From IMG/VR virus record IMGVR_UViG_3300029818_000005, positions 1 to 39,057 of that record: a DNA stretch of 39,057 nucleotides. One strand, 5' to 3'. The stretch is from a virus. The notes beneath the pieces are model-generated. The model worked only from the letters and a program-made list of their open reading frames with translations, did no database searches and was not told the origin of the DNA. Below are positions 1,430 to 39,057 of this stretch, in pieces. The translations under genes were made by a program, and so were the position numbers. The first letter of the stretch is position 1, and every line of letters starts with the position of its first letter.

Positions 1430-2355
1430 ATGCCCTGATCATCGCCAATACCCAGATTCGCCGCGATCCGACCGGGCGCTACTGCCTCAATGACTTGCAC
1501 CAAGCCAGTGGCGGTGCCAAGCGGCACCAGCCGGCGAACTGGTTGCGACTCGATCAGACCGCCGAACTGATCGCGGAGATCGAAAACACCGAGAAAAGTG
1601 CGGGGGGCCTCCTCACATCTGAGGAGGCCCCCCTGTCCACGGTGAACGACGGATTCGGAAACGGCACCTACGCCGTCAAAGAACTGGTCTACGCCTACGC
1701 CATGTGGATCAGCGCCAAGTTCCACCTGCACGTCATCCGCGCCTACGATGCCCTGGTCACCGGCGCCGCCTCCACGCCGCAACCCATCCCCGCGCCGCCG
1801 AACCACCGCGCCGATGTGCTGGTTAGCGCCGGGCGCATCTTCGCCGCCGCCTTGCGCACCGCGCAGAAAACCCGCATGGCCCCGGCCCGCGCCATGCGCG
1901 CTGCCTTTGCCTGCGCGCAGCGCCACACCGGCGTGGACTGGACCGATGAGCTGGGCGTCGAGGTTGCGGCCGACCCGGCTGGCGCGGACGTAGCGCTGGC
2001 CTACGATGACTCCATCGCCTGGTTCTACACCGCGCTCACCGCCGGCGACATCCCCGGCGTCAGCGCGCGCCCGGCGCTAAGCACCAGCGTCTACGACCTC
2101 TATCAGCGCTGGTGCAGCGCCAACGGCAACCGCATCGCCGCGCAGCAGCACTTCATCAACGCCCTGCAGCGCCGCTACGGCGTGGCCAGTGCCCGCAAGC
2201 GCTACCAGGCCGGCTCGCAAGTGCTCGGGCCACATGGCGTGCTGTACCTGGGCGACATCATCCCGCCCGTCGATCGCACCGAAACCGACTGGCTGGGTGA
2301 GCAGATCAGCGTGTTTCATGCGGCCGTGCAAACCTACCGCGAGGCCAACGGATGA
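1426..2355 (+). CDS. KilA-N domain protein (possible antirepressor) with a C-terminal domain paralogous to the primase tail
   Basis: GTG 1426 with GGAGG 6 nt upstream. The N-terminus IRRDPTGRYCLNDLHQASG...YAMWISAKFHLHVIRAYDAL is KilA-N-like. The last roughly 110 aa align colinearly with the protein encoded at 81..415. Confidence 0.75.
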   Translation: MNALIIANTQIRRDPTGRYCLNDLHQASGGAKRHQPANWLRLDQTAELIAEIENTEKSAGGLLTSEEAPLSTVNDGFGNGTYAVKELVYAYAMWISAKFHLHVIRAYDALVTGAASTPQPIPAPPNHRADVLVSAGRIFAAALRTAQKTRMAPARAMRAAFACAQRHTGVDWTDELGVEVAADPAGADVALAYDDSIAWFYTALTAGDIPGVSARPALSTSVYDLYQRWCSANGNRIAAQQHFINALQRRYGVASARKRYQAGSQVLGPHGVLYLGDIIPPVDRTETDWLGEQISVFHAAVQTYREANG

Positions 2356-2936
2356 CCGACGGGTTACCGCAAACCTGCACGCAAGCCGAGTTCGCCCGCC
2401 TGCTCGGCTACCGGCGCAGCTACGTCACCGCGCTCAAGCGCGATGGCCGGCTGGTGCTGGCAGATGATGGGGCAGTGCAGGTGGCCGAGTCGATCGCGCG
2501 CATCGAAGCCACTCGCGACCCCGGCAAGCGCGCCGTCGCAGAACGCCACGCCGCGGCACGCGAGGCGGCACCGTTGCCGGCAGAGGTAGCGCAGGCCGCC
2601 CCGGAGCCGCCGGCCGCCGCGCCTGTCATGGATGACCCGGCCAGCCCCGGCTACCAACACTGGCGCGAGCGCCGCGAACGCGCCGCAGCGCTCGCCGCCG
2701 AGCGGGACAACGCCCTGGCCGATGGCAAGTTGCTGGCTGCCGATGATGTGGCGGCGCAGGTGGCCACCGCGTTTGTCACCGCACGCGGCGCGCTGGAAGC
2801 GCTGCCAGATATCCTCGCCCCGCAACTAGCGGCTGAAAGCGACGAAGCGCGGTGCCGGGCGCTGTTGGTGGAGGCGATCGAGCTACAGCTTGGCGATCTC
2901 AGTCGCCGCCTGGCGGCGTTGGAAGGTCAGCCGTGA
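2352..2936 (+). CDS. terS: Terminase small subunit (N-terminal HTH, Nu1-like arrangement)
   Basis: ATGA overlap with the upstream gene. The HTH reads TQAEFARLLGYRRSYVTALKRDGRL. The gene lies directly upstream of, and is coupled (GTGA) to, the large subunit. Confidence 0.7.
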   Translation: MTDGLPQTCTQAEFARLLGYRRSYVTALKRDGRLVLADDGAVQVAESIARIEATRDPGKRAVAERHAAAREAAPLPAEVAQAAPEPPAAAPVMDDPASPGYQHWRERRERAAALAAERDNALADGKLLAADDVAAQVATAFVTARGALEALPDILAPQLAAESDEARCRALLVEAIELQLGDLSRRLAALEGQP

Positions 2937-4870
2937 ACCACGGCCGCCGCACCGCCGGCGCTGCCACCGTGTTGCGCGCCGCCGCGCGAGCTGTCGCTCC
3001 GCGCCGTCCAATCACTGTCAGCCAGTGGGCCGATGCCGAGCGCGTGCTCAGCACCAAGGGCAGCGCCGAACCCGGGCGCTGGCGCACCAGCCGCAACCCG
3101 GTGCTGCGCGAGCCGATGGATTGCCTGTCGGCGCGCAGCTCAGTGCGCGATGTGCTCTGCATGTTCCCGATCCAGATCGGCAAGACCGAGATTGCGCTCA
3201 ACGCCATCGGCTACACCATGGATCAATCGCCCGGGCCCATCATGGTGTGCCTGCCAAGCGAAGCGTCGATGAACAAATGGCTGGCGCAAAAGCTGGGGCC
3301 GCTGATCGAAGAAACGCCCGCCGTGCAGCGTGCGCTGCTCAGCACTGCCAGCCGCGACGGCGCCAACCGGCGCGAGTTCAAGGATTTTCGCGGCGGCCAA
3401 TTGTTCGTTGAGCACGCCGGCAGCTCGGCGCGGCTCAAGTCCGCCAGCGTGCGCGTGCTGGTGGTCGATGAGTACGACGAGTTCGCCGCCAATGTGGGCA
3501 CCGGCGACGACCCCGTCGCGTTGCTCGAAGGGCGCACCTCGGCGTTCCCGGCCACCTACAAGCGGTTGTACATCAGCAGCCCGCAGATCCGTGGCCTCAG
3601 TCGCACCGAAGCACTGTGGGAGAAGAGCGACCAACGGCGGTATCACGTCGCCTGCCCGCATTGCGGGCATGAACAAGCGCTCGAATGGAGTGGCCTGATC
3701 TGGAACACCGATCTCAGTCAGTGCAGCTACGCATGCCGAGACTGTGGCGCGCTCATCGATGAGCACCACAAGCCGGCAATGATCGCCGCCGGGCGCTGGG
3801 TAGCCGGCAACCCCGAATCGCGGATTCGCGGATATCACCTCAACGGGCTGTACTACCCGATCGGGCTTGGCCCGCGCTGGCACGATCTGGCGCGCATGTG
3901 GCTCGATGCGCAGAACGACCCGGCCAAGCTCAAGACGTTCATCAACGACCGGTTGGCCGAGCCGTGGGAAGACCCAGCCATGCGCGCGGTCAAGCACAAC
4001 CTGATCGCCGACCGCGCCGAACCGCTGCCGATGCGCCCGGTACCGGCATGGGTGCTGGCGGTCACCGCCGGCATCGATACCCAGGACAACCGACTCGCCG
4101 TGCAGATCGTCGGCTGGGGTAGGGGGCTCGCGAGCTGGACCATCGACTACGTGGAGTTGCCAGGCGACCCGGCCGAAGATGCCGTGTGGGCCGGTTTGAC
4201 AGACCTGTTGCTGCGCCCGATCGAGCGGTGCGATGGTGGCGTGATGCAGGTCGAGGCTGCGGCAATCGACATCGGCGGCCATCGCACCGAGGCGGTCAAG
4301 GCCTACGTTCGCCAGCGCCTGGTGCGGCGGATGCTGGCGATCCACGGCGCCGTGCCGAACAACGCACCGGTACTGGGCAAGGGCAAGCTGCAGGACATCA
4401 ACTGGCGCGGAAAGTACGACAAGCATGGTGTACACATCCACGCAGTCGGCACCGTCGCAATCAAGCACCTGCTCTACAGCCGCTTGAGCACCGATGCCGA
4501 CAAACAGCCAGACGCCCGTCTCGTGCGTTTCAGCAACGATCTGGATGCAGCCTATTTCGGCGGGATTACCGCCGAGGCATACAACCCGGCGAAGAATCGA
4601 TTCGAGAAACGCCGTGGCGCGCCGCGTAACGAGCCGCTCGACACGTGGGTCTATTCGTACGCCGCCACCCATCACCCGGAACTGCGGCTGCACCGCGCCA
4701 CCCGTCTGGACTGGGATGCACGCGAAGCGCGCGCGGCATCGAGCGTGGCGGCCAGGCGCCCGGCGGCGAACCCGCCGACCACGTCGGCGTCCGCGCCAAA
4801 GCCAAAGACACGCACAACAACGCCGCGCAACCAATGGGGCGGACACAACAACCAAAGAGGATGGGGCTGA
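2933..4870 (+). CDS. terL: Terminase large subunit, lambda GpA family
   Basis: 645 aa from GTG 2933. Walker-type motifs MFPIQIGKTE and VLVVDEYDEF. Zinc-ribbon CPHCGHEQ...CRDCG. Overall GpA-like layout. Confidence 0.9.
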   Translation: MNHGRRTAGAATVLRAAARAVAPRRPITVSQWADAERVLSTKGSAEPGRWRTSRNPVLREPMDCLSARSSVRDVLCMFPIQIGKTEIALNAIGYTMDQSPGPIMVCLPSEASMNKWLAQKLGPLIEETPAVQRALLSTASRDGANRREFKDFRGGQLFVEHAGSSARLKSASVRVLVVDEYDEFAANVGTGDDPVALLEGRTSAFPATYKRLYISSPQIRGLSRTEALWEKSDQRRYHVACPHCGHEQALEWSGLIWNTDLSQCSYACRDCGALIDEHHKPAMIAAGRWVAGNPESRIRGYHLNGLYYPIGLGPRWHDLARMWLDAQNDPAKLKTFINDRLAEPWEDPAMRAVKHNLIADRAEPLPMRPVPAWVLAVTAGIDTQDNRLAVQIVGWGRGLASWTIDYVELPGDPAEDAVWAGLTDLLLRPIERCDGGVMQVEAAAIDIGGHRTEAVKAYVRQRLVRRMLAIHGAVPNNAPVLGKGKLQDINWRGKYDKHGVHIHAVGTVAIKHLLYSRLSTDADKQPDARLVRFSNDLDAAYFGGITAEAYNPAKNRFEKRRGAPRNEPLDTWVYSYAATHHPELRLHRATRLDWDAREARAASSVAARRPAANPPTTSASAPKPKTRTTTPRNQWGGHNNQRGWG

Positions 4871-4872
4871 TC

Positions 4873-5181
4873 ATGGCTGAAGATGTCAAAGCAAACGACC
4901 TGGTTGATGGCCTGCGCAATGCGTTCCTCGCATCAATCCGCGACACGCTACGCGAACTGCCGGCGCATCAGGCGCTGCAACTGGCCGATGGGCTGTGTAC
5001 GGTATGGCTGGAGCGGCTTGCCGGCTTGCGGGTGACTGTCAGTGCCAAGCCGGCTGTCGATAGCGAGGCGATCACCGAGGATTGGCGGCGCGGGCTCACC
5101 CTGCGCGAGGTGATGGCGAAGCATCGTTGCAGCAAGGCGACTGCGTACCGGCACCATCCATGCAAGAGCGGCATGAAATGA
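4873..5181 (+). CDS. Small protein with a Mor/C-type C-terminal HTH (possible late-gene activator)
   Basis: AGLRVTVSAKPAVDSEAITEDWRRGLTLREVMAKHRCSKATAYRH resembles the Mor-family GG-IYIP...ELA..Y.vS...iYrI pattern. ATG 4861 is an alternative start. Confidence 0.5.
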   Translation: MAEDVKANDLVDGLRNAFLASIRDTLRELPAHQALQLADGLCTVWLERLAGLRVTVSAKPAVDSEAITEDWRRGLTLREVMAKHRCSKATAYRHHPCKSGMK

Positions 5182-5507
5182 AAAATGCACAGATCGGGCA
5201 GGCTGTCCGCGAGTTCCACGCTACCGTGCGTGAGGTGGAAGAAGTTATGGATGCGTTAAACGACGTGCTTGGAACACACCCAGAAAGCAAGCTGTCCGCT
5301 GCCGTGTGGGCCGTGGTTGGGCGATACAAAAGCGCGCTCGATGATGCCTACGGTATCGGCGGTTGGCTCGAATGGTGGTGGCTCGAGTGTCGCCTCGGTA
5401 GCAACCCGTTGCGGGCCAGATTGCAGGGCGAAGAGATGCGGATAGTCGCAAACGTCGATGAGCTGGTTACCCTCGTCGTCAGCGACGCGGAACAAGCGCA
5501 AAGATAG
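5178..5507 (+). CDS. Hypothetical protein
   Basis: ATG 5178 overlaps the upstream stop (ATGAAATGA context). Codon bias is consistent with coding. No family recognised. Confidence 0.55.
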   Translation: MKNAQIGQAVREFHATVREVEEVMDALNDVLGTHPESKLSAAVWAVVGRYKSALDDAYGIGGWLEWWWLECRLGSNPLRARLQGEEMRIVANVDELVTLVVSDAEQAQR

Positions 5508-5516
5508 CGCCCTCTG

Positions 5517-5568
5517 AAAAAGTCTCACGTTCGCCATGACATGAGACACGCGCGAGTGAAAGATACTC
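5517..5568 (+). promoter_or_regulatory. Conserved dyad element, copy 1 (A5-GTCTCACGT-N8-ACATGAGAC plus conserved flank)
   Basis: 29 of 32 nt are identical to 19012..19043. The 9-bp inverted repeat has a conserved spacer YCGCCATG. It sits in the gap before the head operon. Confidence 0.6.
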
Positions 5569-5572
5569 GCCA

Positions 5573-5788
5573 ATGAGCACCCAAGAACGTCTTGACGCCT
5601 ATCTCGCTGCCGAGGCTGCCATTCTCAAAGGGCAGGAGTACCGATTCGGCGAACGCGCCCTGACCCGTGCTGACCTTGCTGAGGTCCGCATGGGCATCGG
5701 CAGTCTCAAGGCAGAGCTGCGGCGCGAGCAGGGCCGTCACAACAGTCTGTCTGCGGCGAGCGCAGCGTTCCCGGGTGGGCGCTGGTGA
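5573..5788 (+). CDS. Head-tail joining protein, lambda gpW-like
   Basis: 71 aa, MSTQERLDAYLAAEAAILKGQEYRFGERALTRADLAEV. Size, position (between terL and portal) and pattern match gpW. Confidence 0.7.
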   Translation: MSTQERLDAYLAAEAAILKGQEYRFGERALTRADLAEVRMGIGSLKAELRREQGRHNSLSAASAAFPGGRW

Positions 5789-10248: not shown

Positions 10249-10772
10249 TCAGCATGCAGATGGGCATCGACCGCAAAGAGCTCGATCAACTGCTCGGCGC
10301 GTTCCAGATCAGCAAGCGTGCGGCCAAGCGCGCCGCTGAGCGTGCCGTGCGCAAGGCGGCCAAGTGGACCGGCGGCCAGGCAGCGAAGGTCACCGGCGCC
10401 GAGCTGCGGGTGCAGCAGCGCTTCATTCGCCAGCGCCTGCGCTTGTTCCGCAAAGGCGATGGTACCGAGCAAAAAATCTGGCTTGGCCTGAACTCCGTCG
10501 CTGCCGCGCGCTTGGGGCAGGCGCGGCAGGGTCCGCGCGGCGTACGCATTGGCCAGCACTTCTTCGACAAGGCCTTCATCATCAAGAAGTACGGTGGTGG
10601 GATATACACGCGGCCGTCGGCTGATCGATTTCCGATCAGCCTGGTCAAGGTTGAAATTGACGAAGCCGGCGCGCGCGCAATCCGCGCCGTGGCGGCGCGC
10701 GCCGAAGAACGCCTGCTCACCCTGCTGCGGCAGGAGCTGAACTTCGAGCTATCTCGGAGCGGCAAGCGATGA
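10245..10772 (+). CDS. Minor tail/tail completion protein, lambda gpZ-like (tentative)
   Basis: GTGA overlap. The pattern ...VRKAAKWTGGQAAKV...GVRIGQHFFDKAFIIKKYGGGIYTRPSADRFPI resembles gpZ-family proteins. Confidence 0.5.
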   Translation: MISMQMGIDRKELDQLLGAFQISKRAAKRAAERAVRKAAKWTGGQAAKVTGAELRVQQRFIRQRLRLFRKGDGTEQKIWLGLNSVAAARLGQARQGPRGVRIGQHFFDKAFIIKKYGGGIYTRPSADRFPISLVKVEIDEAGARAIRAVAARAEERLLTLLRQELNFELSRSGKR

Positions 10773-11278
10773 CCCTGACCGAAGCCATCGATGCGATTGC
10801 CGCACTGCTGCGCGCTGCCATGCCCGACGTGCCCACGGTGTCGGCCGATCCGCCGCCGCAGGCGCAGCGCGCCGTGCGCATGCCGGCGGTGTACCTGCAG
10901 CTCACCGAGTTGGAGCCGCTTGGCAACCCCGGCGATGGACGGGTGTCTGCCGATGCCCGTTTCGAGGCGTACTGCATCGTTGATCCGAACACGCCGCGCG
11001 CCGAGCTGGCCTGCCGCGAGCTGGCGGCGCGGGTGATCCTCGCCTTGCATGCTGCGCCGCGCCCGTTGCCAGGGCACGGCCACCTGCGGCAGCTGCGTGC
11101 TGGCGATGCCGATTTTCGCCCCGAGCTGGACGGCTACCGCCTGTGGCTGGTCGAGTTCGGCATTGAGTTGCAACTCGGCGCGTTGGAGCCGGCCGGCATC
11201 ACGCCCACTGAAATCTGGCTGGGCACGTCGCCCGACATCGGCCCACCACACGTTGATGACTACGAGCAGGTCGAATGA
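10769..11278 (+). CDS. Tail completion/terminator-like protein (tentative)
   Basis: ATGA overlap; 169 aa. Assigned by position upstream of the baseplate spike and sheath genes. Confidence 0.45.
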   Translation: MTLTEAIDAIAALLRAAMPDVPTVSADPPPQAQRAVRMPAVYLQLTELEPLGNPGDGRVSADARFEAYCIVDPNTPRAELACRELAARVILALHAAPRPLPGHGHLRQLRAGDADFRPELDGYRLWLVEFGIELQLGALEPAGITPTEIWLGTSPDIGPPHVDDYEQVE

Positions 11279-11829
11279 ACCCGATCGACATCACCGAACT
11301 GGCGCGCCGCCTCGCCAACCTGCTGCGCTACGGGCAGATCGAGCAGGCCGACTACGCCCAGGCGTTGGTGCGGGTGCAGTGCGATGGCTACCTCACCGGC
11401 TGGCTGCCGTGGCTCACCCGCCGCGCTGGCGGCGATGTCGATTGGTGGGCGCCGGAGGTCGGCGAAGCGGTGCTGGTGCTGGCCCCGGATGGCGACCCGG
11501 CGCTGGCCGTGGTGTTGCCCGCCGCGTACAGCGACGCCGTGCCGCCGCCGGAAACCTCGCCCGACATCGCCGCGTGGCGGTTCGGCACTGCGGTCTCCGT
11601 CGCCGTGGATCGCAGCACCGGCGCGCTGACCGTGATCGCCAGCGGCACCGTGCGCGTGCAAGCCCCGCGCGTGGAGATCGCTGCCGAGCAAGTGGAGATC
11701 ACCGGCCACCTGAGCGTCGGCGATGGCGTCACCGTCACCGGCGATGTTACCGCCGATGGCATCAGCCTCAAGACCCACAAACACGGCGGCGTGCAGGCCG
11801 GCGGCGCGCTCACCGGGGCACCGCAATGA
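11275..11829 (+). CDS. gpV: Baseplate assembly/spike protein, P2 gpV-like
   Basis: ELARRLANLLRYGQI...WLPWLTRRAGGDVDWWAPEVGEAVLVLAPDGD...KTHKHGGVQAGG closely follows the P2 gpV pattern. Confidence 0.85.
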   Translation: MNPIDITELARRLANLLRYGQIEQADYAQALVRVQCDGYLTGWLPWLTRRAGGDVDWWAPEVGEAVLVLAPDGDPALAVVLPAAYSDAVPPPETSPDIAAWRFGTAVSVAVDRSTGALTVIASGTVRVQAPRVEIAAEQVEITGHLSVGDGVTVTGDVTADGISLKTHKHGGVQAGGALTGAPQ

Positions 11830-11899
11830 GACTGAAAATTGCTGTAACTGACAACCGCGCCACCGCGCACCGTTTGACCACACACTGAAGGAGCCTGAA

Positions 11900-17833: not shown

Positions 17834-18039
17834 TGCGCGAGTATCGCACCCGCGACGGCGACACCCTCGACGCCATCGCCTGGCGCGTGTACGGCCGGCA
17901 CGGCGCCGTCGTAGCGTTAGCCGAAGCAAACCCGCGGGCGCTTGACGCACCGGTATTGCCGGCTGGCGTGGTGCTGCAACTACCAGTGGTCCCCACGGCG
18001 CCGAGAGTGGCCACCGTGCGGCTGTGGGGCGCGGCGTGA
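17833..18039 (+). CDS. gpX: Tail protein X (LysM-like), P2 gpX-like
   Basis: MREYRTRDGDTLDAIAWRVYGR...VLPAGVVLQLP matches the gpX pattern. Confidence 0.8.
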   Translation: MREYRTRDGDTLDAIAWRVYGRHGAVVALAEANPRALDAPVLPAGVVLQLPVVPTAPRVATVRLWGAA

Positions 18040-19013
18040 AGCCGGCGTTCGCCATCACGCTGAACGGAACCGACATCACTGGCAATATCGCTGATCGCCT
18101 GATTTCGCTCAGCATCAGCGATGAGGCGGGTATTTCGTCCGATCGATTCGAACTGTCGCTCGATGACCGCGACCACGCCTTGGGATGGCCCGGTGCTGGC
18201 GTCGAGCTGGAGATTGCGCTCGGCTACCGCGAGACTGGCGGCGCACGGACGATGGGGCGCTACACGGTTGACGAAGTGGAGTCGTCCGGGCCGCCGGCCG
18301 TGCTGAACCTGCGCGGCGCCGCTGCCGACATGCTGGCCAGCCTCAAGAGCCAGCGCCGCGCTGACTATGACGGCAAGACGCTGGGCGAAATCGTGCGCAC
18401 CATTGCTGCCCGCCACCGGCTCACCCCGCAGATTGCCGCGGCCTTGGAAGCGCAGCCGGTGGAACACCTGGACCAGACCGACGAAAGCGACCTGCACCTG
18501 CTCACACGGCTGGCCGAGCAGTTCGGCGCCATCGCCAAGCCCGCAGCCGGGCGCCTGTTGTTCGTCGAGGTCGGGAAGGGTCTGGACGCGAGCGGCGCCG
18601 CCATGCCGGCGGTTGCGATCGTCCGCAATCAGGTAACGAGCTGGCGAGCGTCCGAGCAAGAGCGGCAGTTCTATTCGCGGGTGGAAGCGCGCTGGAAGCC
18701 GCCGCGCAAGCATGCCACCCAGACCGTGGTGGTGGGCGATGGCGACCCATCGACCACGTTGCGCAACGCGTTCCGCTCGGAGCTCGACGCCCGCCGCGCT
18801 GCCGAGGCGCGCTTGCGCAAAATGTCGCGCGGGCGCACCTCGCTCAGCCTGGGCGTGCCTGGCGACCCCGATCTGGTTGCCGAGCGCCCGATTACCCTGT
18901 CCGGGTTTCGCGACGGGGTGGATGGCGACTGGATCATCACCCGCGCCGAGCATCGCCTCGACAGCAGCGGCTACAGCACCAGCATCGAGGCGCAGCGGTC
19001 TGTGGCAGACTAA
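18036..19013 (+). CDS. gpD: Late control/tail protein D, P2 gpD-like
   Basis: GTGA overlap with gpX. KPAFAITLNGTDITGNIADRLISLSISDEAG. GTG 18024 is an alternative start. Confidence 0.85.
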   Translation: MKPAFAITLNGTDITGNIADRLISLSISDEAGISSDRFELSLDDRDHALGWPGAGVELEIALGYRETGGARTMGRYTVDEVESSGPPAVLNLRGAAADMLASLKSQRRADYDGKTLGEIVRTIAARHRLTPQIAAALEAQPVEHLDQTDESDLHLLTRLAEQFGAIAKPAAGRLLFVEVGKGLDASGAAMPAVAIVRNQVTSWRASEQERQFYSRVEARWKPPRKHATQTVVVGDGDPSTTLRNAFRSELDARRAAEARLRKMSRGRTSLSLGVPGDPDLVAERPITLSGFRDGVDGDWIITRAEHRLDSSGYSTSIEAQRSVAD

Positions 19014-19063
19014 AAAAGTCTCGCGTCCGCCATGACGTGAGACAGCCGCGCATGAAATGCTCC
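19012..19063 (+). promoter_or_regulatory. Conserved dyad element, copy 2 (A6-GTCTCGCGT-N8-ACGTGAGAC plus flank)
   Basis: The only other copy of the 5517..5568 element in the window. It sits in the gap between gpD and gpW. Confidence 0.6.
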
Positions 19064-19413
19064 CGGGCATGCTAGGCATGTCCCGAACCAGCGGCCGATT
19101 GCTCGATGAATTGACGCATCTGCGGCAATCGATTGCCGATATCCTGACGACGCCCATTGGCTCGCGGGTGATGCGTCGCGACTACGGCTCGCGCCTGTTC
19201 GAGATGGTGGACGCGCCGATCAACGCGCGCACCCTGGGCGACATCTACGCCGCCACCGTGGACGCGCTGCGGCGTTGGGAGCCGCGCCTTGCCGTTCGCC
19301 AGGTGCGCGTGTTGCAGGCCGCCGCAGGGCGCTTGGAACTGGCGCTCTCCGCCGACTTCCGCGACGGGGCCCAACGCACCCGTATCAATCTGCCTATCGA
19401 GGTGTCGGCATGA
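19057..19413 (+). CDS. gpW: Baseplate protein W (gp25/lysozyme-like fold family)
   Basis: LGMSRTSGRLLDELTHLRQSIADILTTPIGSRVMRRDYGS matches P2 gpW. ATG 19068 is an alternative start. Confidence 0.85.
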   Translation: MLPGMLGMSRTSGRLLDELTHLRQSIADILTTPIGSRVMRRDYGSRLFEMVDAPINARTLGDIYAATVDALRRWEPRLAVRQVRVLQAAAGRLELALSADFRDGAQRTRINLPIEVSA

Positions 19414-30513: not shown

Positions 30514-30553
30514 GTGGGTCTCCCTGTGGGCCGCTGGGTGGCGGTGTGGGGAG

Positions 30554-30582
30554 ACATTACCGCAATGGTTATGCCATGTCAA
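30554..30582 (-). promoter_or_regulatory. PL-type promoter: -35 TTGACA, 17-nt spacer, -10 TAATGT (minus strand)
   Basis: Reverse complement reads ggtaTTGACAtggcataaccattgcggTAATGTctcc, about 35 nt upstream of ATG 30513. Confidence 0.6.
30557..30571. promoter_or_regulatory. Operator OL1: TTACC-GCAAT-GGTTA
   Basis: 15-bp inverted repeat overlapping the PL spacer and -10. Confidence 0.6.
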
Positions 30583-30596
30583 TACCGTTATGGTAA
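30582..30596. promoter_or_regulatory. Operator OL2: ATACC-GTTAT-GGTAA
   Basis: 15-bp inverted repeat abutting the PL -35, 25 bp centre-to-centre from OL1. Confidence 0.6.
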
Positions 30597-30694
30597 TGAC
30601 GTTTTGCATGATGCAGGTGCCGGTTGTTGCGATAGCGGGCATGCTCAGCGCAGTGCGGCTCCGGCGCTGGCCGGTGGGATGGATTCGGGGCGTG

Positions 30695-33493: not shown

Positions 33494-33508
33494 ATGACCG
33501 AAAGGGTA

Positions 33509-33537
33509 TTGCAACCGCGTAACCGATACGGTAATGT
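33509..33537 (+). promoter_or_regulatory. PR-type promoter: -35 TTGCAA, 17-nt spacer, -10 TAATGT
   Basis: gtaTTGCAAccgcgtaaccgatacggTAATGTcttgggcATG. The -10 ends 7 nt before the cro ATG. Confidence 0.6.
33520..33534. promoter_or_regulatory. Operator OR2: TAACC-GATAC-GGTAA
   Basis: Overlaps the PR spacer and -10 in the same register as OL1 at PL (GGTAATGT). Confidence 0.6.
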
Positions 33538-33544
33538 CTTGGGC

Positions 33545-36995: not shown

Positions 36996-39057
36996 GTGGC
37001 GGCGAACTATGGTGATGTGCTCGCACAGTTGACTGGCGCCGGTCTGATCGTCGACAGCATCGAGGTGGGCCGGATGCGGCGATGCCGCGTCGAGGGTGAT
37101 CGCGAGCGTCGCGGATGGTACATCGCGCACGAAATTCAATCGCAGAAAGGCGAGACCCTGCTGGTCGGCAGCTACGGAATTTGGCACGGCAGCGACAATG
37201 GGGCGCAGAAAATCGAGTTGCGCAAATCGGAGTTCTCGGCAGAGCAGCGCGAGTCGATTCGCAAGCGGTTGGCTGAAGATCGCAAGCGCGCGGATGTCGC
37301 CAGGCGCATCGAGAGCGACCGCGCAGCTCGATCCGCACAATCGGCATGGTCGCGATACGCCCTCGATGGCGAATCGGAGTACCTGGCACGCAAGGGCGTC
37401 GGCGCGCACGGGGTGCGCTTCACCAGCGCTGGCGCGGTGGTTATCCCGCTGACGGATGTCGCGGGTGTTGTGCACGGCCTGCAATTCATCCGCACCGCAG
37501 CGCAGTCGGCCGCAGCCAAGCGCCCGCGCAAAGAGTTCTGGCCTGCCGGAATGGCCAAGCGCGGAAACTTCCACCTGATCGGTGTGCCAGACCAGGTGTT
37601 GCTGGTCGCCGAGGGCTACGCCACCGCCGCGACCCTGCACCAGGCCACCGGGCTACCGGTTGCCGTGGCGTTCGATGCGGGTAACCTCGCGCCGGTTTGC
37701 GCGGCGCTGCGCAAGCGCCACAAGATTATCAAGGTGTTGATCTGCGCCGATGACGACAGCCTGGCGAAATGCCGCCGGTGCGAGCACAAGTTGTCGCTCG
37801 CCGAGCACCCCACAATGTGCCCGTCATGTGGGCAGCCCCATGACCGATCCAACGCCGGTGTGTTGGCCGCCAGCACCGCCGCGTTGGAAGTCGGCGGGGC
37901 GTGGATCACACCGCAGTTTCCGGATACAGCAGCACGCTGGGCGAAGTTTGCCGAGCGCGACATCAAACTTACCGACTTCAATGACTTCGCGTCCGAGAGC
38001 ACCAGCGTCGCCGTGCGCGAGCAGGTGCTGGGCCACATCTCGGCGCTGGGGTGGAACATCAGTCACCGCGCAGCGCCTGCAATCAAACCAAGGGGCGAGG
38101 GGCTGGCGCCGATCAGCTCAGTTGGCGAGTTGCTGGAGCGTTACGCGCTGGTATACGGGCAGGGTGGGACCGTGTTCGATCGGCAAGAACACTGTCTGCT
38201 GGCGTTGTCTGACATGCGCGATGCCTGCCTCACGCGCGAGCTGCACCGCGCCTGGTGCGAACACCCTGAGCGCGACATCGTGCGCGTGCGTGAAGTCGGC
38301 TTTGATCCTGGTGGCGATGACGCCGAAATTAAATGCAATCTCTGGGCCGGCTGGCCCACCGCGCCGGCGGCCGGAGGGTGCGACAAACTGCTCGATCTTT
38401 TGCGCTACATGTGCGCAAACGATACCCACCCCGAGGTGCTCTATCGCTGGGTGTTGCGCTGGATCGCGTACCCCATCCAGCACCCGGGCGCAAAGATGAA
38501 GACCACGCTGGTGATTCATGGCCCGCAGGGCACCGGCAAGAATCTGTTCTTCGAAGCGCTCATGTCGATCTACGGCCCCTACGGCCGCGTCATCGGCCAA
38601 GACGCCATCGAAGACCGCTTTAACGACTGGGCGTCGCGCAAGCTGTTTCTGATTGCCGACGAAGTGATCGCGCGCAGCGACCTGTACCACGTCAAGAACA
38701 AGCTCAAGGCTTTCATCACCGGCGAATGGATACGCATCAACCCGAAGAACCTGGCGGCCTACGACGAACGCAACCACGTCAACATGGTGTTCTTGAGTAA
38801 CGAATCCATGCCGGTTGTGCTCGAAGAGGATGACCGGCGGCACGTCGTGATCTGGACACCCGAGAAACTCTCGCACGAGTACTACCGCGCGGTGCTCGAC
38901 GAGATCGCCAACGGTGGCGCCGCAGCGCTGCATGATTACCTGCTGCACCTTGATCTGGGCGAGTTTGGCAACGGGCAAGCCCCGCCGGTCACGTCAGCAA
39001 AATCCGAACTGATCAGCCTCTCGCTCGACAGCACCGCGCGGTTCTACTACGCGCTCA
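36996..39057 (+). CDS. Toprim primase fused to a D5/P4-alpha-type SF3 helicase (continues at 2..415; 792 aa in total)
   Basis: Toprim motifs LLVAEGYATAATL and VLICADDD. Zinc ribbon CRRCEHK...CPSCGQ. Walker A VIHGPQGTGKN; Walker B KLFLIADE. The frame is open to the window end, hence absent from the ORF track. Confidence 0.85.
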   Translation, partial: MAANYGDVLAQLTGAGLIVDSIEVGRMRRCRVEGDRERRGWYIAHEIQSQKGETLLVGSYGIWHGSDNGAQKIELRKSEFSAEQRESIRKRLAEDRKRADVARRIESDRAARSAQSAWSRYALDGESEYLARKGVGAHGVRFTSAGAVVIPLTDVAGVVHGLQFIRTAAQSAAAKRPRKEFWPAGMAKRGNFHLIGVPDQVLLVAEGYATAATLHQATGLPVAVAFDAGNLAPVCAALRKRHKIIKVLICADDDSLAKCRRCEHKLSLAEHPTMCPSCGQPHDRSNAGVLAASTAALEVGGAWITPQFPDTAARWAKFAERDIKLTDFNDFASESTSVAVREQVLGHISALGWNISHRAAPAIKPRGEGLAPISSVGELLERYALVYGQGGTVFDRQEHCLLALSDMRDACLTRELHRAWCEHPERDIVRVREVGFDPGGDDAEIKCNLWAGWPTAPAAGGCDKLLDLLRYMCANDTHPEVLYRWVLRWIAYPIQHPGAKMKTTLVIHGPQGTGKNLFFEALMSIYGPYGRVIGQDAIEDRFNDWASRKLFLIADEVIARSDLYHVKNKLKAFITGEWIRINPKNLAAYDERNHVNMVFLSNESMPVVLEEDDRRHVVIWTPEKLSHEYYRAVLDEIANGGAAALHDYLLHLDLGEFGNGQAPPVTSAKSELISLSLDSTARFYYAL
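38960..39057. repeat. Terminal overlap, identical to 1..98
   Basis: Same 98-nt string as the window start. Confidence 0.95.

Follow-up and report, generated by a model that had tools for sequence, protein, structure and literature searches.

The stretch of viral DNA analysed here, the 39,057 nucleotides (nt) of IMG/VR record IMGVR_UViG_3300029818_000005 (referred to below as the window), carries a 26-bp imperfect dyad with its flanks at two places, 5517-5572 and 19012-19068, directly in front of a head gene and a baseplate gene, respectively. In our assessment, both copies are probably promoter regions under the control of a divergent Mor/C-family protein encoded at 4873-5181, and the best reading of our sequence comparisons is an activator-dependent promoter from which a leaderless or near-leaderless mRNA would be made. 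We infer from these comparisons the binding itself, activation and not repression, the participating polymerase and sigma factor, and the exact start site. An activator-dependent late promoter was one of two hypotheses in an earlier, sequence-only reading of this DNA; it is now backed by four independent comparative lines, namely the homology of the regulator, its co-occurrence with the element, the covariation of half-site and recognition helix, and the retention of the dyad-hexamer geometry in relatives of the L126 type that have an added leader. The -10 hexamer and the position of the site centre proposed at that time had to be revised, and leaderless output had not been stated.

The element is present exactly twice in the window, as had been claimed. 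The 32-mer AAAAAGTCTCRCGTYCGCCATGACRTGAGACA is found at 5517-5548 and 19013-19044 (one base off the 19012-19043 given earlier), with none expected from 100 dinucleotide shuffles, and there is no third copy in the window at up to three mismatches. The two copies agree at 29 of the 32 positions, and their likeness extends to 48 nt at 83% identity (repeat family D12); since they are alike beyond the functional positions, recent copying or gene conversion between them is suggested. Each consists of the 9-bp arms around an 8-nt spacer that had been described, both belong to the same half-site class, and the centre of each dyad is located 38.5 nt from the respective ATG (5573 and 19069), in good agreement with the earlier estimate of about 38 nt. 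The -35-like hexamers match the consensus at five (copy 1) and four (copy 2) of six positions. As to the -10 region of copy 1, the previously favored GATACT at 5563-5568 was discarded; it is out of register with the family-conserved hexamer, AAAGAT at 5559-5564, and lies 21 nt from the -35-like element.

The N-terminus of the head-tail adaptor downstream of copy 1 is conserved from ATG 5573 in all relatives, and neither this ATG nor ATG 19069 of the baseplate wedge gene W is preceded by a Shine-Dalgarno sequence. For W, we favor the start at 19069 over one at 19057 on the basis of its homologues (L178, L179), which begin with MPGMSR. The suggested placement of the element at the starts of the head and baseplate operons holds in so far as the copies lie directly 5' of the adaptor and W genes; copy 1 does not, however, open the head/packaging array, as TerS, TerL, the Mor-like gene and a 109-codon open reading frame (ORF) are situated upstream on the same strand. 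Nor do the two copies occupy the only sizeable gaps of the late region, as had been thought: a third gap (11830-11899; 70 nt, before the sheath gene) contains a GAAGGAG ribosome-binding site and no dyad.

The same layout recurs in related phages. Our searches yielded 27 homologues of the 102-amino acid (aa) protein, and the contigs of six of them all present the order TerL, small protein, a gap of 55-70 nt, adaptor and portal; in every one of them the element immediately precedes the adaptor ATG. The half-site GTCTCAC is common to the window and the loci L081, L087, L089, and L090, and the arms are unchanged in close relatives (GTCTCACG/CGTGAGAC); in distant relatives they are altered on both sides (GTCCAC/GTGGAC, GTCCGCG/CGCGGAC, GTGCA/TGCAC, GTTCGCGG/CCGCGAAC, GTTAA../..TTAAC). 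Most members of a larger set of 80 IMG/VR loci, retrieved through an alignment of the adaptor protein, follow one plan: a dyad (typically TGTCCACG-N11-13-CGTGGACA, the signature of what we call the TGTCCACG subfamily), 10-11 nt, a hexamer, 6-9 nt, and an ATG lacking a Shine-Dalgarno sequence. The conserved hexamers in this larger family are TAGCCT (26 of 52 regions), TAGCTT, TAACCT and similar ones, and those of the window's subfamily are AAAGAT, GAACAT, GACGAT, TAGCTT or TACCGT; the invariant positions, A2 and T6, are the two key bases of the sigma-70 -10 element. In those relatives from the window's subfamily that we read directly, nTGACn can be recognized inside the dyad spacer, 17 nt upstream of nAnnnT. 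An A-tract (AAAAAG, AGAAAG or AAAGAAAG) is found in all members of the window's subfamily and is absent from the TGTCCACG subfamily. The regulator gene either adjoins the element or, separated from it by a moron, sits 1.2-2 kb upstream; when a moron has been inserted after the regulator gene (in the window, L096, and L120), the element stays with the adaptor. Because an extra gene parts the regulator gene from the element in L096 and in the window, the element is to be assigned to the adaptor's 5' side. Searched for in related phages, the motif is thus conserved at the adaptor boundary and, in L178, also at the boundary between gpD and W.

Scans with the exact motif of IMG/VR, GTDB genomes and JGI metagenomes returned one true relative (L081, the same as L083); their other matches, in cyanobacterial and eukaryote-like coding DNA, were dismissed as chance. 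A scan of IMG/VR for TGTCCAC-N11-15-GTGGACA gave, among the matches listed, mostly single sites that are probably often due to chance. GenBank phages contained no usable relative: DNA matches were confined to the capsid gene, and tblastn found no match for the two regulator subfamilies and one weak Clostridium phage match for the adaptor. We found no description of this arrangement in a search of the literature.

The presence of the element coincides with that of the regulator gene and with the loss of the Shine-Dalgarno sequence. We compared 52 distinct upstream regions that have a Mor/C-like gene after TerL with 12 that do not. A Shine-Dalgarno-like motif is present in only two of the 52 regions vs. 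nine of the 12, and nAnnnT is positioned 6-9 nt before the start in 48 of the former (49 after the start of L090 had been corrected) vs. none of the latter, the base rate of this hexamer pattern being 12%. Because the counted regions are phylogenetically related, the corresponding Fisher P-values of about 4e-7 (Shine-Dalgarno contrast) and 6e-10 (hexamer contrast) are indicative only. All genes in the set with the regulator start with ATG (L090 after correction), as compared to ten ATG and two GTG starts in the other set. Dyad and hexamer are separated by a fixed 10-11 nt, and hexamer and ATG by 8 nt in 33 regions, 7 nt in 12, 6 nt in two and 9 nt in one. In L126-128, the dyad, 11 nt and a hexamer (CAAACT) are kept and are then followed by a 26-nt leader that carries a GGAGAG Shine-Dalgarno sequence. 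Retention of the dyad-hexamer geometry without that of the hexamer-ATG distance is the behavior of a promoter, unlike that of an RNA element.

With respect to copy 2, the element stands between the stop codon of gpD and the W ATG in the relative L178 (W protein 84% identical), where it reads GTCTCACG..CATGAGAC, followed by CAGCAT, 6 nt and the ATG. Hence, the predicted baseplate promoter is conserved in part of the lineage. Eighty gpD loci say little about copy 2 because gpD is mostly the last gene of its operon and W follows only in L001, L002, and L006. The D-W spacers of L001 (3104-3160) and L002 (3988-4071) are mutually conserved and contain a weak dyad (AGTGCG-N20-CGCACC) and a GATCAT 7 nt before an ATG without Shine-Dalgarno sequence; they may be promoters of the same build whose half-sites belong to a different class. 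Two specificities would be needed if L002 and L081 are one phage.

The Mor-like label given earlier to the 4873-5181 gene has stood up to profile-profile comparison with Pfam-Mor-positive proteins. Against PF08765 (cut-off 24.9 bits), the L114-type protein reaches 33.8 bits and that of L168 23.4 bits; proteins of the L114/L168 type form a Stenotrophomonas-prophage subfamily, and many of the proteins P0028-P0048 are annotated with PF08765 in the protein database. Jackhmmer merges the window protein with the L114/L168-type subfamilies, the hidden Markov model of the window family (A1) picks up the small ORF behind TerL in the other loci and matches the L168 protein (E 4e-5), and hhalign aligns A1 with the Pfam-Mor-positive, Stenotrophomonas-type family A3 over the full length (probability 96.8%, E 2.1e-10, 92 columns), thereby placing a degenerate stretch of the window protein on the Mor/C linker. 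Mor/C proteins are small, with an acidic N-terminal and a basic C-terminal half (PMC2582627), and the 102-aa regulator shares this trait: residues 1-51 comprise eight D/E and five K/R, and residues 52-102 five D/E and 11 K/R. The linker reads AGLRVTYRAKP in most of the window's subfamily, FGGERLHIPK in L168 and L114, and FAGEQPYFPA in the TGTCCACG subfamily. An AlphaFold2 model (pLDDT 78), which as a monomer cannot show an intertwined dimer, has helices at 7-28 and 31-51, a linker at 52-63 and a helix-turn-helix (HTH) domain made of helices 64-72, 77-84, and 88-93; this predicted secondary structure would fit the Mor/C plan, in which a two-helix dimerisation domain at the N-terminus is joined by a linker to a C-terminal HTH. 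A sequence-profile search of the PDB gave generic HTH proteins only (TetR, E 0.004; DNA-binding domain of gamma-delta resolvase, E 0.0075). Taken by its sequence relationships, the product of 4873-5181, the sole such gene in the window, is a divergent Mor/C-family protein. Its subfamily is small, with 74 representatives (E <=1e-3) among 1.84 billion proteins. Several of the 74 are long proteins in which the match is limited to repeated HTH segments; P0055 (710 aa), P0059 (436 aa) and others contain 5-11 tandem copies of the linker+HTH segment (profile positions about 51-96).

The half-site varies with the protein encoded next to it. In the recognition helix, which has the motif S-R/K-x1-x2-L/A-Y/H, the residues x1-x2 are tracked by the half-site class, also across subfamilies: A/S-T/G goes with GTCTCAC, S/A-K/A with GTCCAC, T-T with GTCCGCG (L096 and, in the other subfamily, L170), R-T/S with GTGCA or GTGCC (L092, L142, and L126, from three subfamilies), and P-T with GTTAA. 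As L168 pairs S-T with GTCTCAC, this code involves both x1 and x2.

The covariation bears directly on the second hypothesis of the sequence-only reading, an RNA hairpin. The element would then act within the long late transcript as one or two intercistronic stem-loops that serve processing, stability, translation control or the attachment of an RNA-binding protein. Complementary changes of the arms among relatives (GTCTCACG/CGTGAGAC, GTCCAC/GTGGAC, GTCCGCG/CGCGGAC, and GTGCA/TGCAC) are what one would look for in this case, both strands fold well, most head copies of the window's subfamily have a second hairpin just 5' of the AUG (z down to -3.3), and an AUG devoid of a Shine-Dalgarno sequence needs a special route of initiation. 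Symmetric half-site changes are, however, equally expected of a dimeric DNA-binding protein, so that the arm changes fit both views alike, and here the half-site tracks the recognition helix of the neighboring protein. Furthermore, 11-12 of the 54 distinct sites pair at no more than six of nine positions yet retain the hexamer and the spacing. Of the 79 arm mismatches, 42 are unpairable on either strand, whereas 24 form a G.U wobble on the plus strand and 13 do so on the minus strand (A.C on plus). Poor palindromes in about one-fifth of the sites and mostly non-wobble mismatches argue against an RNA hairpin. In the window, the wobble is on one strand in copy 1 and on the other in copy 2, exactly as had been reported: the single arm mismatch of copy 1 is C.A on the plus strand (G.U on minus), so that this copy is paired, with a wobble, only on the minus strand, and that of copy 2 is G.U on the plus strand, the only one on which it pairs. 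The loop is itself conserved (yCCnTGAy), and a search of Rfam matched neither copy, even with E values up to 1 allowed. The second hairpin is missing from copy 2, from L178, and from the second subfamily, and the L126 variant has its leader added downstream of the hexamer. Collectively, the tracking of half-site and helix, the imperfect pairing and the conserved loop without an Rfam match favor a DNA site over an RNA hairpin, and we judge an RNA element to be distinctly unlikely.

The second inverted repeat, which brackets the -10-like hexamer of copy 1 (Table 1), has a mean z of -1.7 in 14 regions of the window's subfamily vs. +0.5 in the other subfamily, and it is absent from the whole TGTCCACG subfamily. 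Equivalents with z down to -4 occur in L087, L090, L096, L099, and L152, with a sequence that differs from phage to phage. One could envision, tentatively and with rather low expectations, that the palindrome is used twice: the Mor/C-like protein would sit on the DNA astride the -35 region and fire a leaderless mRNA, and the RNA fold in read-through transcripts from the terminase unit would keep the AUG, lacking its Shine-Dalgarno sequence, untranslated. The recognition code would be a simple one, with x1 and x2 of the helix matching bases 3-6 of the half-site; the second repeat around the -10 region of head copies would add to the silencing of read-through RNA; and synthesis of head and baseplate proteins would then rely wholly on activator-driven leaderless transcripts.

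The promoter interpretation that we prefer lends itself to the following model. The regulator gene ends the co-directional TerS-TerL unit, so that its synthesis would come before, and trigger, the expression of the structural genes, by the same logic that links Mu C to its late promoters. The protein, probably a dimer or tetramer as in Mu, would bind the 26-bp imperfect dyad, whose GTCTCRC half-sites, spaced by about two turns of the helix, lie on either side of a weak -35-like ATGACR; the upstream A-tract may aid binding of the alpha subunit of RNA polymerase in the manner of an UP element, or bend the DNA. Host sigma-70 RNA polymerase would then use the weak -10-like AAAGAT/AATGCT, 11-12 nt downstream of the dyad, and start transcription 6-9 nt past the hexamer, at the ATG or within a few nt of it. 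Leaderless or near-leaderless messages would ensue for the head operon (adaptor, portal, and protease-capsid) and the baseplate operon (W, J, I, and fibre), and they would explain the missing Shine-Dalgarno sequences of the adaptor and W genes. As the ATG is in most cases the ninth nucleotide after the hexamer, a leader of 1-3 nt is as likely as a truly leaderless start.

The same geometry raises the question of whether the Mor/C-like protein might instead be a repressor or timer, its operator covering the -35 region and spacer of an otherwise active promoter and thereby delaying head and baseplate transcription. With the dyad at about -51 to -25, the -35-like TGAC and half of the spacer are covered, the classic position of a repressor; copy 1 has a -35 match of 5/6; and Mu C represses when its site overlies the promoter core, as in the synthetic Prep (PMC2582627). 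All characterized Mor/C proteins activate promoters with a poor -35, on the other hand (PMC2582627; bioRxiv 10.1101/2025.05.02.651988), and a high basal activity is unlikely in view of the weak -10-like hexamers and the poor -35 of the large TGTCCACG subfamily. It would also make little biological sense for a product of the terminase operon to block structural genes that are needed simultaneously. Repression, conceivable because the site reaches about -23, is consequently an unlikely explanation in our eyes.

Several observations weigh against the promoter model. The -10-like hexamers of both window copies are weak, with three of six consensus matches, and a promoter scan of the window calls neither copy. 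The site has its center at about -37 to -39 and extends as far as about -23, nearer to the -10 region than in Mu (-43.5) and in a position also typical of repressors; the ATG, mostly the ninth nucleotide after the hexamer, is at the long end of start-site spacing; and the model does not account for the second hairpin-like repeat of the head copies. The kinship of the counted regions makes the P-values overstate their independence, and the closest gpD relatives, L001/L179 and L002, have a different D-W spacer without the copy 2 element. Regarding the regulator, the window protein does not match the Pfam Mor family (PF08765) even at E up to 10 and has no significant match to any Pfam or PHROG family. 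A Foldseek comparison of the AlphaFold2 model with the PDB was non-significant, the best match being gamma-delta resolvase (E 0.38) and Mor (1rr7) ranking 15th (E 0.72). In place of the invariant Mor/C linker, G-G-x-x-(F)-Y-(I)-P-x-G (PMC2582627), the window protein has the degenerate L-A-G-L-R-V-T-V-S-A-K-P.

Two explanations without an activator draw on the flanks of the element. On the minus strand, a stem-loop followed by TTTTT(T) could be an intrinsic terminator that stops antisense transcription from entering the late genes; indeed, a scan calls copy 1 on this strand (nine pairs and TTTTT), and the A-tract is conserved in the window's subfamily. Its stem counts only four G-C pairs against a genomic G+C content of 66%, copy 2 is mismatched on the minus strand (C.A) and was passed over by the scan, no convergent minus-strand genes are located nearby, and neither the conserved loop nor the fixed distance to the ATG would be accounted for. 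We reject this terminator as highly improbable since its appearance depends on the A-tract, which the large TGTCCACG subfamily lacks while keeping dyad, hexamer and spacing. We consider it just as improbable that the element marks a module boundary or a place of recombination, or that it is a small mobile element copied from the head to the baseplate junction, without any regulatory role. The 83% identity over 48 nt does include flanks beyond the dyad, the closest gpD relatives are without the element at their D-W junction, and morons insert beside it; yet the distance to the ATG is fixed, the element coincides with Shine-Dalgarno loss and the regulator gene and is conserved across proteins that are only about 45-55% identical, the baseplate copy of L178 has been kept despite a diverged loop and flanks, and there are no terminal repeats or target duplications. 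A -1 frameshift or hopping at A-AAA-AAG beside the stop codon was also considered and rejected, as only some relatives have this stop in the frame of the upstream ORF; another idea considered and dropped was a cos or pac site.

Table 1. Positions of the two element copies and of neighboring genes in the window (promoter-like motifs are predictions).
Feature	Position	Strand	Remarks
TerS	2352-2936	+	
TerL, lambda gpA-type	2852-4870	+	
Divergent Mor/C-family gene (102 aa), candidate activator	4873-5181	+	Directly 3' of TerL
109-codon ORF, moron-like position	5178-5507	+	Between regulator gene and copy 1
A-tract, copy 1	5517-5521	+	Immediately 5' of dyad
Dyad, copy 1 (26 bp, imperfect)	5522-5547		Arms GTCTCACGT (5522-5530) and ACATGAGAC (5539-5547); spacer TCGCCATG
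-35-like ATGACA, copy 1	5536-5541	+	5/6 to TTGACA; in dyad spacer and right arm
-10-like AAAGAT, copy 1	5559-5564	+	A2, A5, T6; 8 nt before ATG; position of family hexamer
Second inverted repeat, GCGAGT-N7-ACTCGC	5552-5570	+	Brackets -10-like hexamer; z = -3.3
Head-tail adaptor, lambda gpW-like	5573-5788	+	Pfam DUF6148; phrog_118, E 4e-19
Tail/baseplate hub, P2 gpD-like	18024-19013	+	Pfam Phage_GPD; TAA stop (19011-19013) overlaps A-tract of copy 2
A-tract, copy 2	19012-19017	+	
Dyad, copy 2 (26 bp, imperfect)	19018-19043		Arms GTCTCGCGT (19018-19026) and ACGTGAGAC (19035-19043); spacer CCGCCATG
-35-like ATGACG, copy 2	19032-19037	+	Read directly, by analogy with copy 1
-10-like AATGCT, copy 2	19056-19061	+	A2, T3, T6; 7 nt before ATG 19069, 18 nt after -35-like motif; weaker than copy 1
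Baseplate wedge W, P2 gpW/T4 gp25-like	19069-19413	+	Pfam GPW_gp25

Among known systems, the late promoters of Mu come closest. They have -10 hexamers and no -35, and the imperfect dyad bound by C overlaps the -35 region (PMC2582627), with a footprint of 26 bp (bioRxiv 10.1101/2025.05.02.651988). The system described here resembles this arrangement in its small protein with a predicted HTH and with acidic N-terminal and basic C-terminal halves, encoded by a gene that closes the preceding transcription unit, in an imperfect dyad over the -35 region of putative promoters that have a -10-like hexamer but would have a poor -35, and in the presence of several copies before morphogenetic operons, the Mu promoter PP likewise heading baseplate genes. 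To the 26 bp protected in Mu would correspond our 26-bp dyad. The spacer of Mu Pmom is 19 bp (PMC2582627), and in the TGTCCACG subfamily a -35-like TTGAGT is also 19 bp away from the hexamer. In contrast, the core dyad of Mu is 16 bp with its center at -43.5 and its half-sites in adjacent major grooves (about 10 bp apart), whereas here the half-sites are about 21 bp apart and flank the -35-like motif, and the center, about 24.5 nt 5' of the hexamer, falls near -37 to -39. The earlier comparison with Mor/C-type sites near -43 therefore stands for the protein family, not for the position and architecture of the site. The linker GG..Y.P.G is degenerate in the window protein (AGLRVTVSAKP), leaderless transcripts are proposed, and the phage is not a Mu; with one regulator gene in the window, there is no two-step cascade from Mor to C.

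Mor and its promoter Pm share with our system the protein family and fold plan (PDB 1RR7) and a dyad just upstream of, or over, a poor -35. Mor needs the C-terminal domain of the alpha subunit and sigma region 4, and the A-tract just upstream of the window site fits this. Mor differs in serving one promoter, whose transcript encodes C and not structural operons, and its sequence likeness to the window protein is seen only via intermediate profiles, with a non-significant Foldseek comparison. The Ogr-dependent late promoters of P2 and 186 (PP, PO, PV, and PF) are activator-dependent, as is proposed here, and dyad-bearing; PV heads the V-W-J-I-H baseplate operon, and the tail and baseplate genes of the window are P2-like. 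Ogr is a zinc-finger protein, and its site, TGT-N12-ACA, is centered near -55; protein family, site and position thus all differ from those of the window system. With lambda PRM/cI and the leaderless genes of Actinobacteria and Deinococcus, the proposed design would have in common the -10 about 7 nt before the ATG, an mRNA that starts at the start codon and no need for a Shine-Dalgarno sequence; at PRM, moreover, an HTH activator beside the -35 stimulates a leaderless-type promoter. There is no homology, however, and the leaderless lambda gene encodes a repressor and not a structural operon. For tailed phages, late structural operons read as leaderless mRNAs are not, to our knowledge, an established feature.

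Mu is almost the only phage in which Mor/C activators have been studied. If our interpretation is true, a divergent branch of this family, its gene in a fixed position directly after the large terminase, runs late expression in a large set of uncultured, non-Mu temperate phages, with half-sites about 21 bp apart that flank the -35, a site geometry unlike that in the Mu structures. The matched natural variants of protein and half-site would be a ready-made specificity code, and leaderless mRNAs would serve for the translation of entire head and baseplate operons, something unusual among Proteobacteria-type phages. The signature of a Mor/C-like gene, a dyad, and a TAnnnT 6-9 nt before an ATG without Shine-Dalgarno sequence could be used to annotate late promoters and to correct start codons in metagenomic phages. 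It also flags a favored slot for morons, which is occupied by an ORF of unknown function here and by a bSEFIR defence gene elsewhere.

Accessory genes have inserted repeatedly in this slot between regulator gene and promoter. The 109-codon ORF that fills it in the window has no Pfam, PHROG or PADLOC match and is absent from this place in L081, L087, L089, and L090; L096 has a TM2-domain gene in it (2395-2670), and L120 a gene for a 486-aa bSEFIR/TIR defence protein (900-2360; PADLOC bSEFIR, E 3e-91).

The window as a whole is a circular or terminally redundant assembly of 38,959 bp with an exact direct repeat of 98 bp (1-98 = 38960-39057) and a G+C content of 65.6%. The phage is not Mu-like; it has a lambda-like head (terminase, portal, and protease-capsid) and a P2-like tail. 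The adaptor gene is followed by a lambda-type portal gene and then by a fusion of ClpP protease and capsid, and W by J-like, I-like and fibre genes according to PHROG matches. In the relatives L087-L090, the spike gene V (Phage_base_V) is positioned upstream of the sheath gene and not before W as in P2, and this relocation makes W the first gene after gpD. By analogy with these relatives, the window probably has the same order of V before sheath (10769-11829). A separate promoter before W makes sense because W is the first gene after gpD.

The only Rfam match of the window at the gathering threshold is a C4 antisense RNA (RF01695) at 1040-1123 on the plus strand (64.1 bits vs. a gathering threshold of 45, E 2.5e-10). 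It is located inside or just upstream of a long ORF (871-2355) that has a KilA-N domain (aa 193-296) and matches PHROG anti-repressor and regulator families; together, the two look like a C4 RNA/antirepressor module of the P1/P7 immI type in a phage that is not P1-like. Within this ORF, a perfectly paired, G+C-rich stem of 14 bp (GGGGGGCCTCCTCA / TGAGGAGGCCCCCC; loop of 4 nt) at 1602-1633, terminator-like on the minus strand, suggests that 871-2355 is not one gene. The C4 RNA/KilA-N region is flanked by a 300-nt direct repeat (68-367 and 2008-2307; 76% identity, 1940 nt apart), which indicates paralogous coding segments. Finally, the early/lysogeny region contains a relatively A+T-rich inverted repeat of 46 nt (30552-30597 and 33494-33539; 74% complementary, 2.9 kb apart), the halves of which could be operator or att-like sequences.

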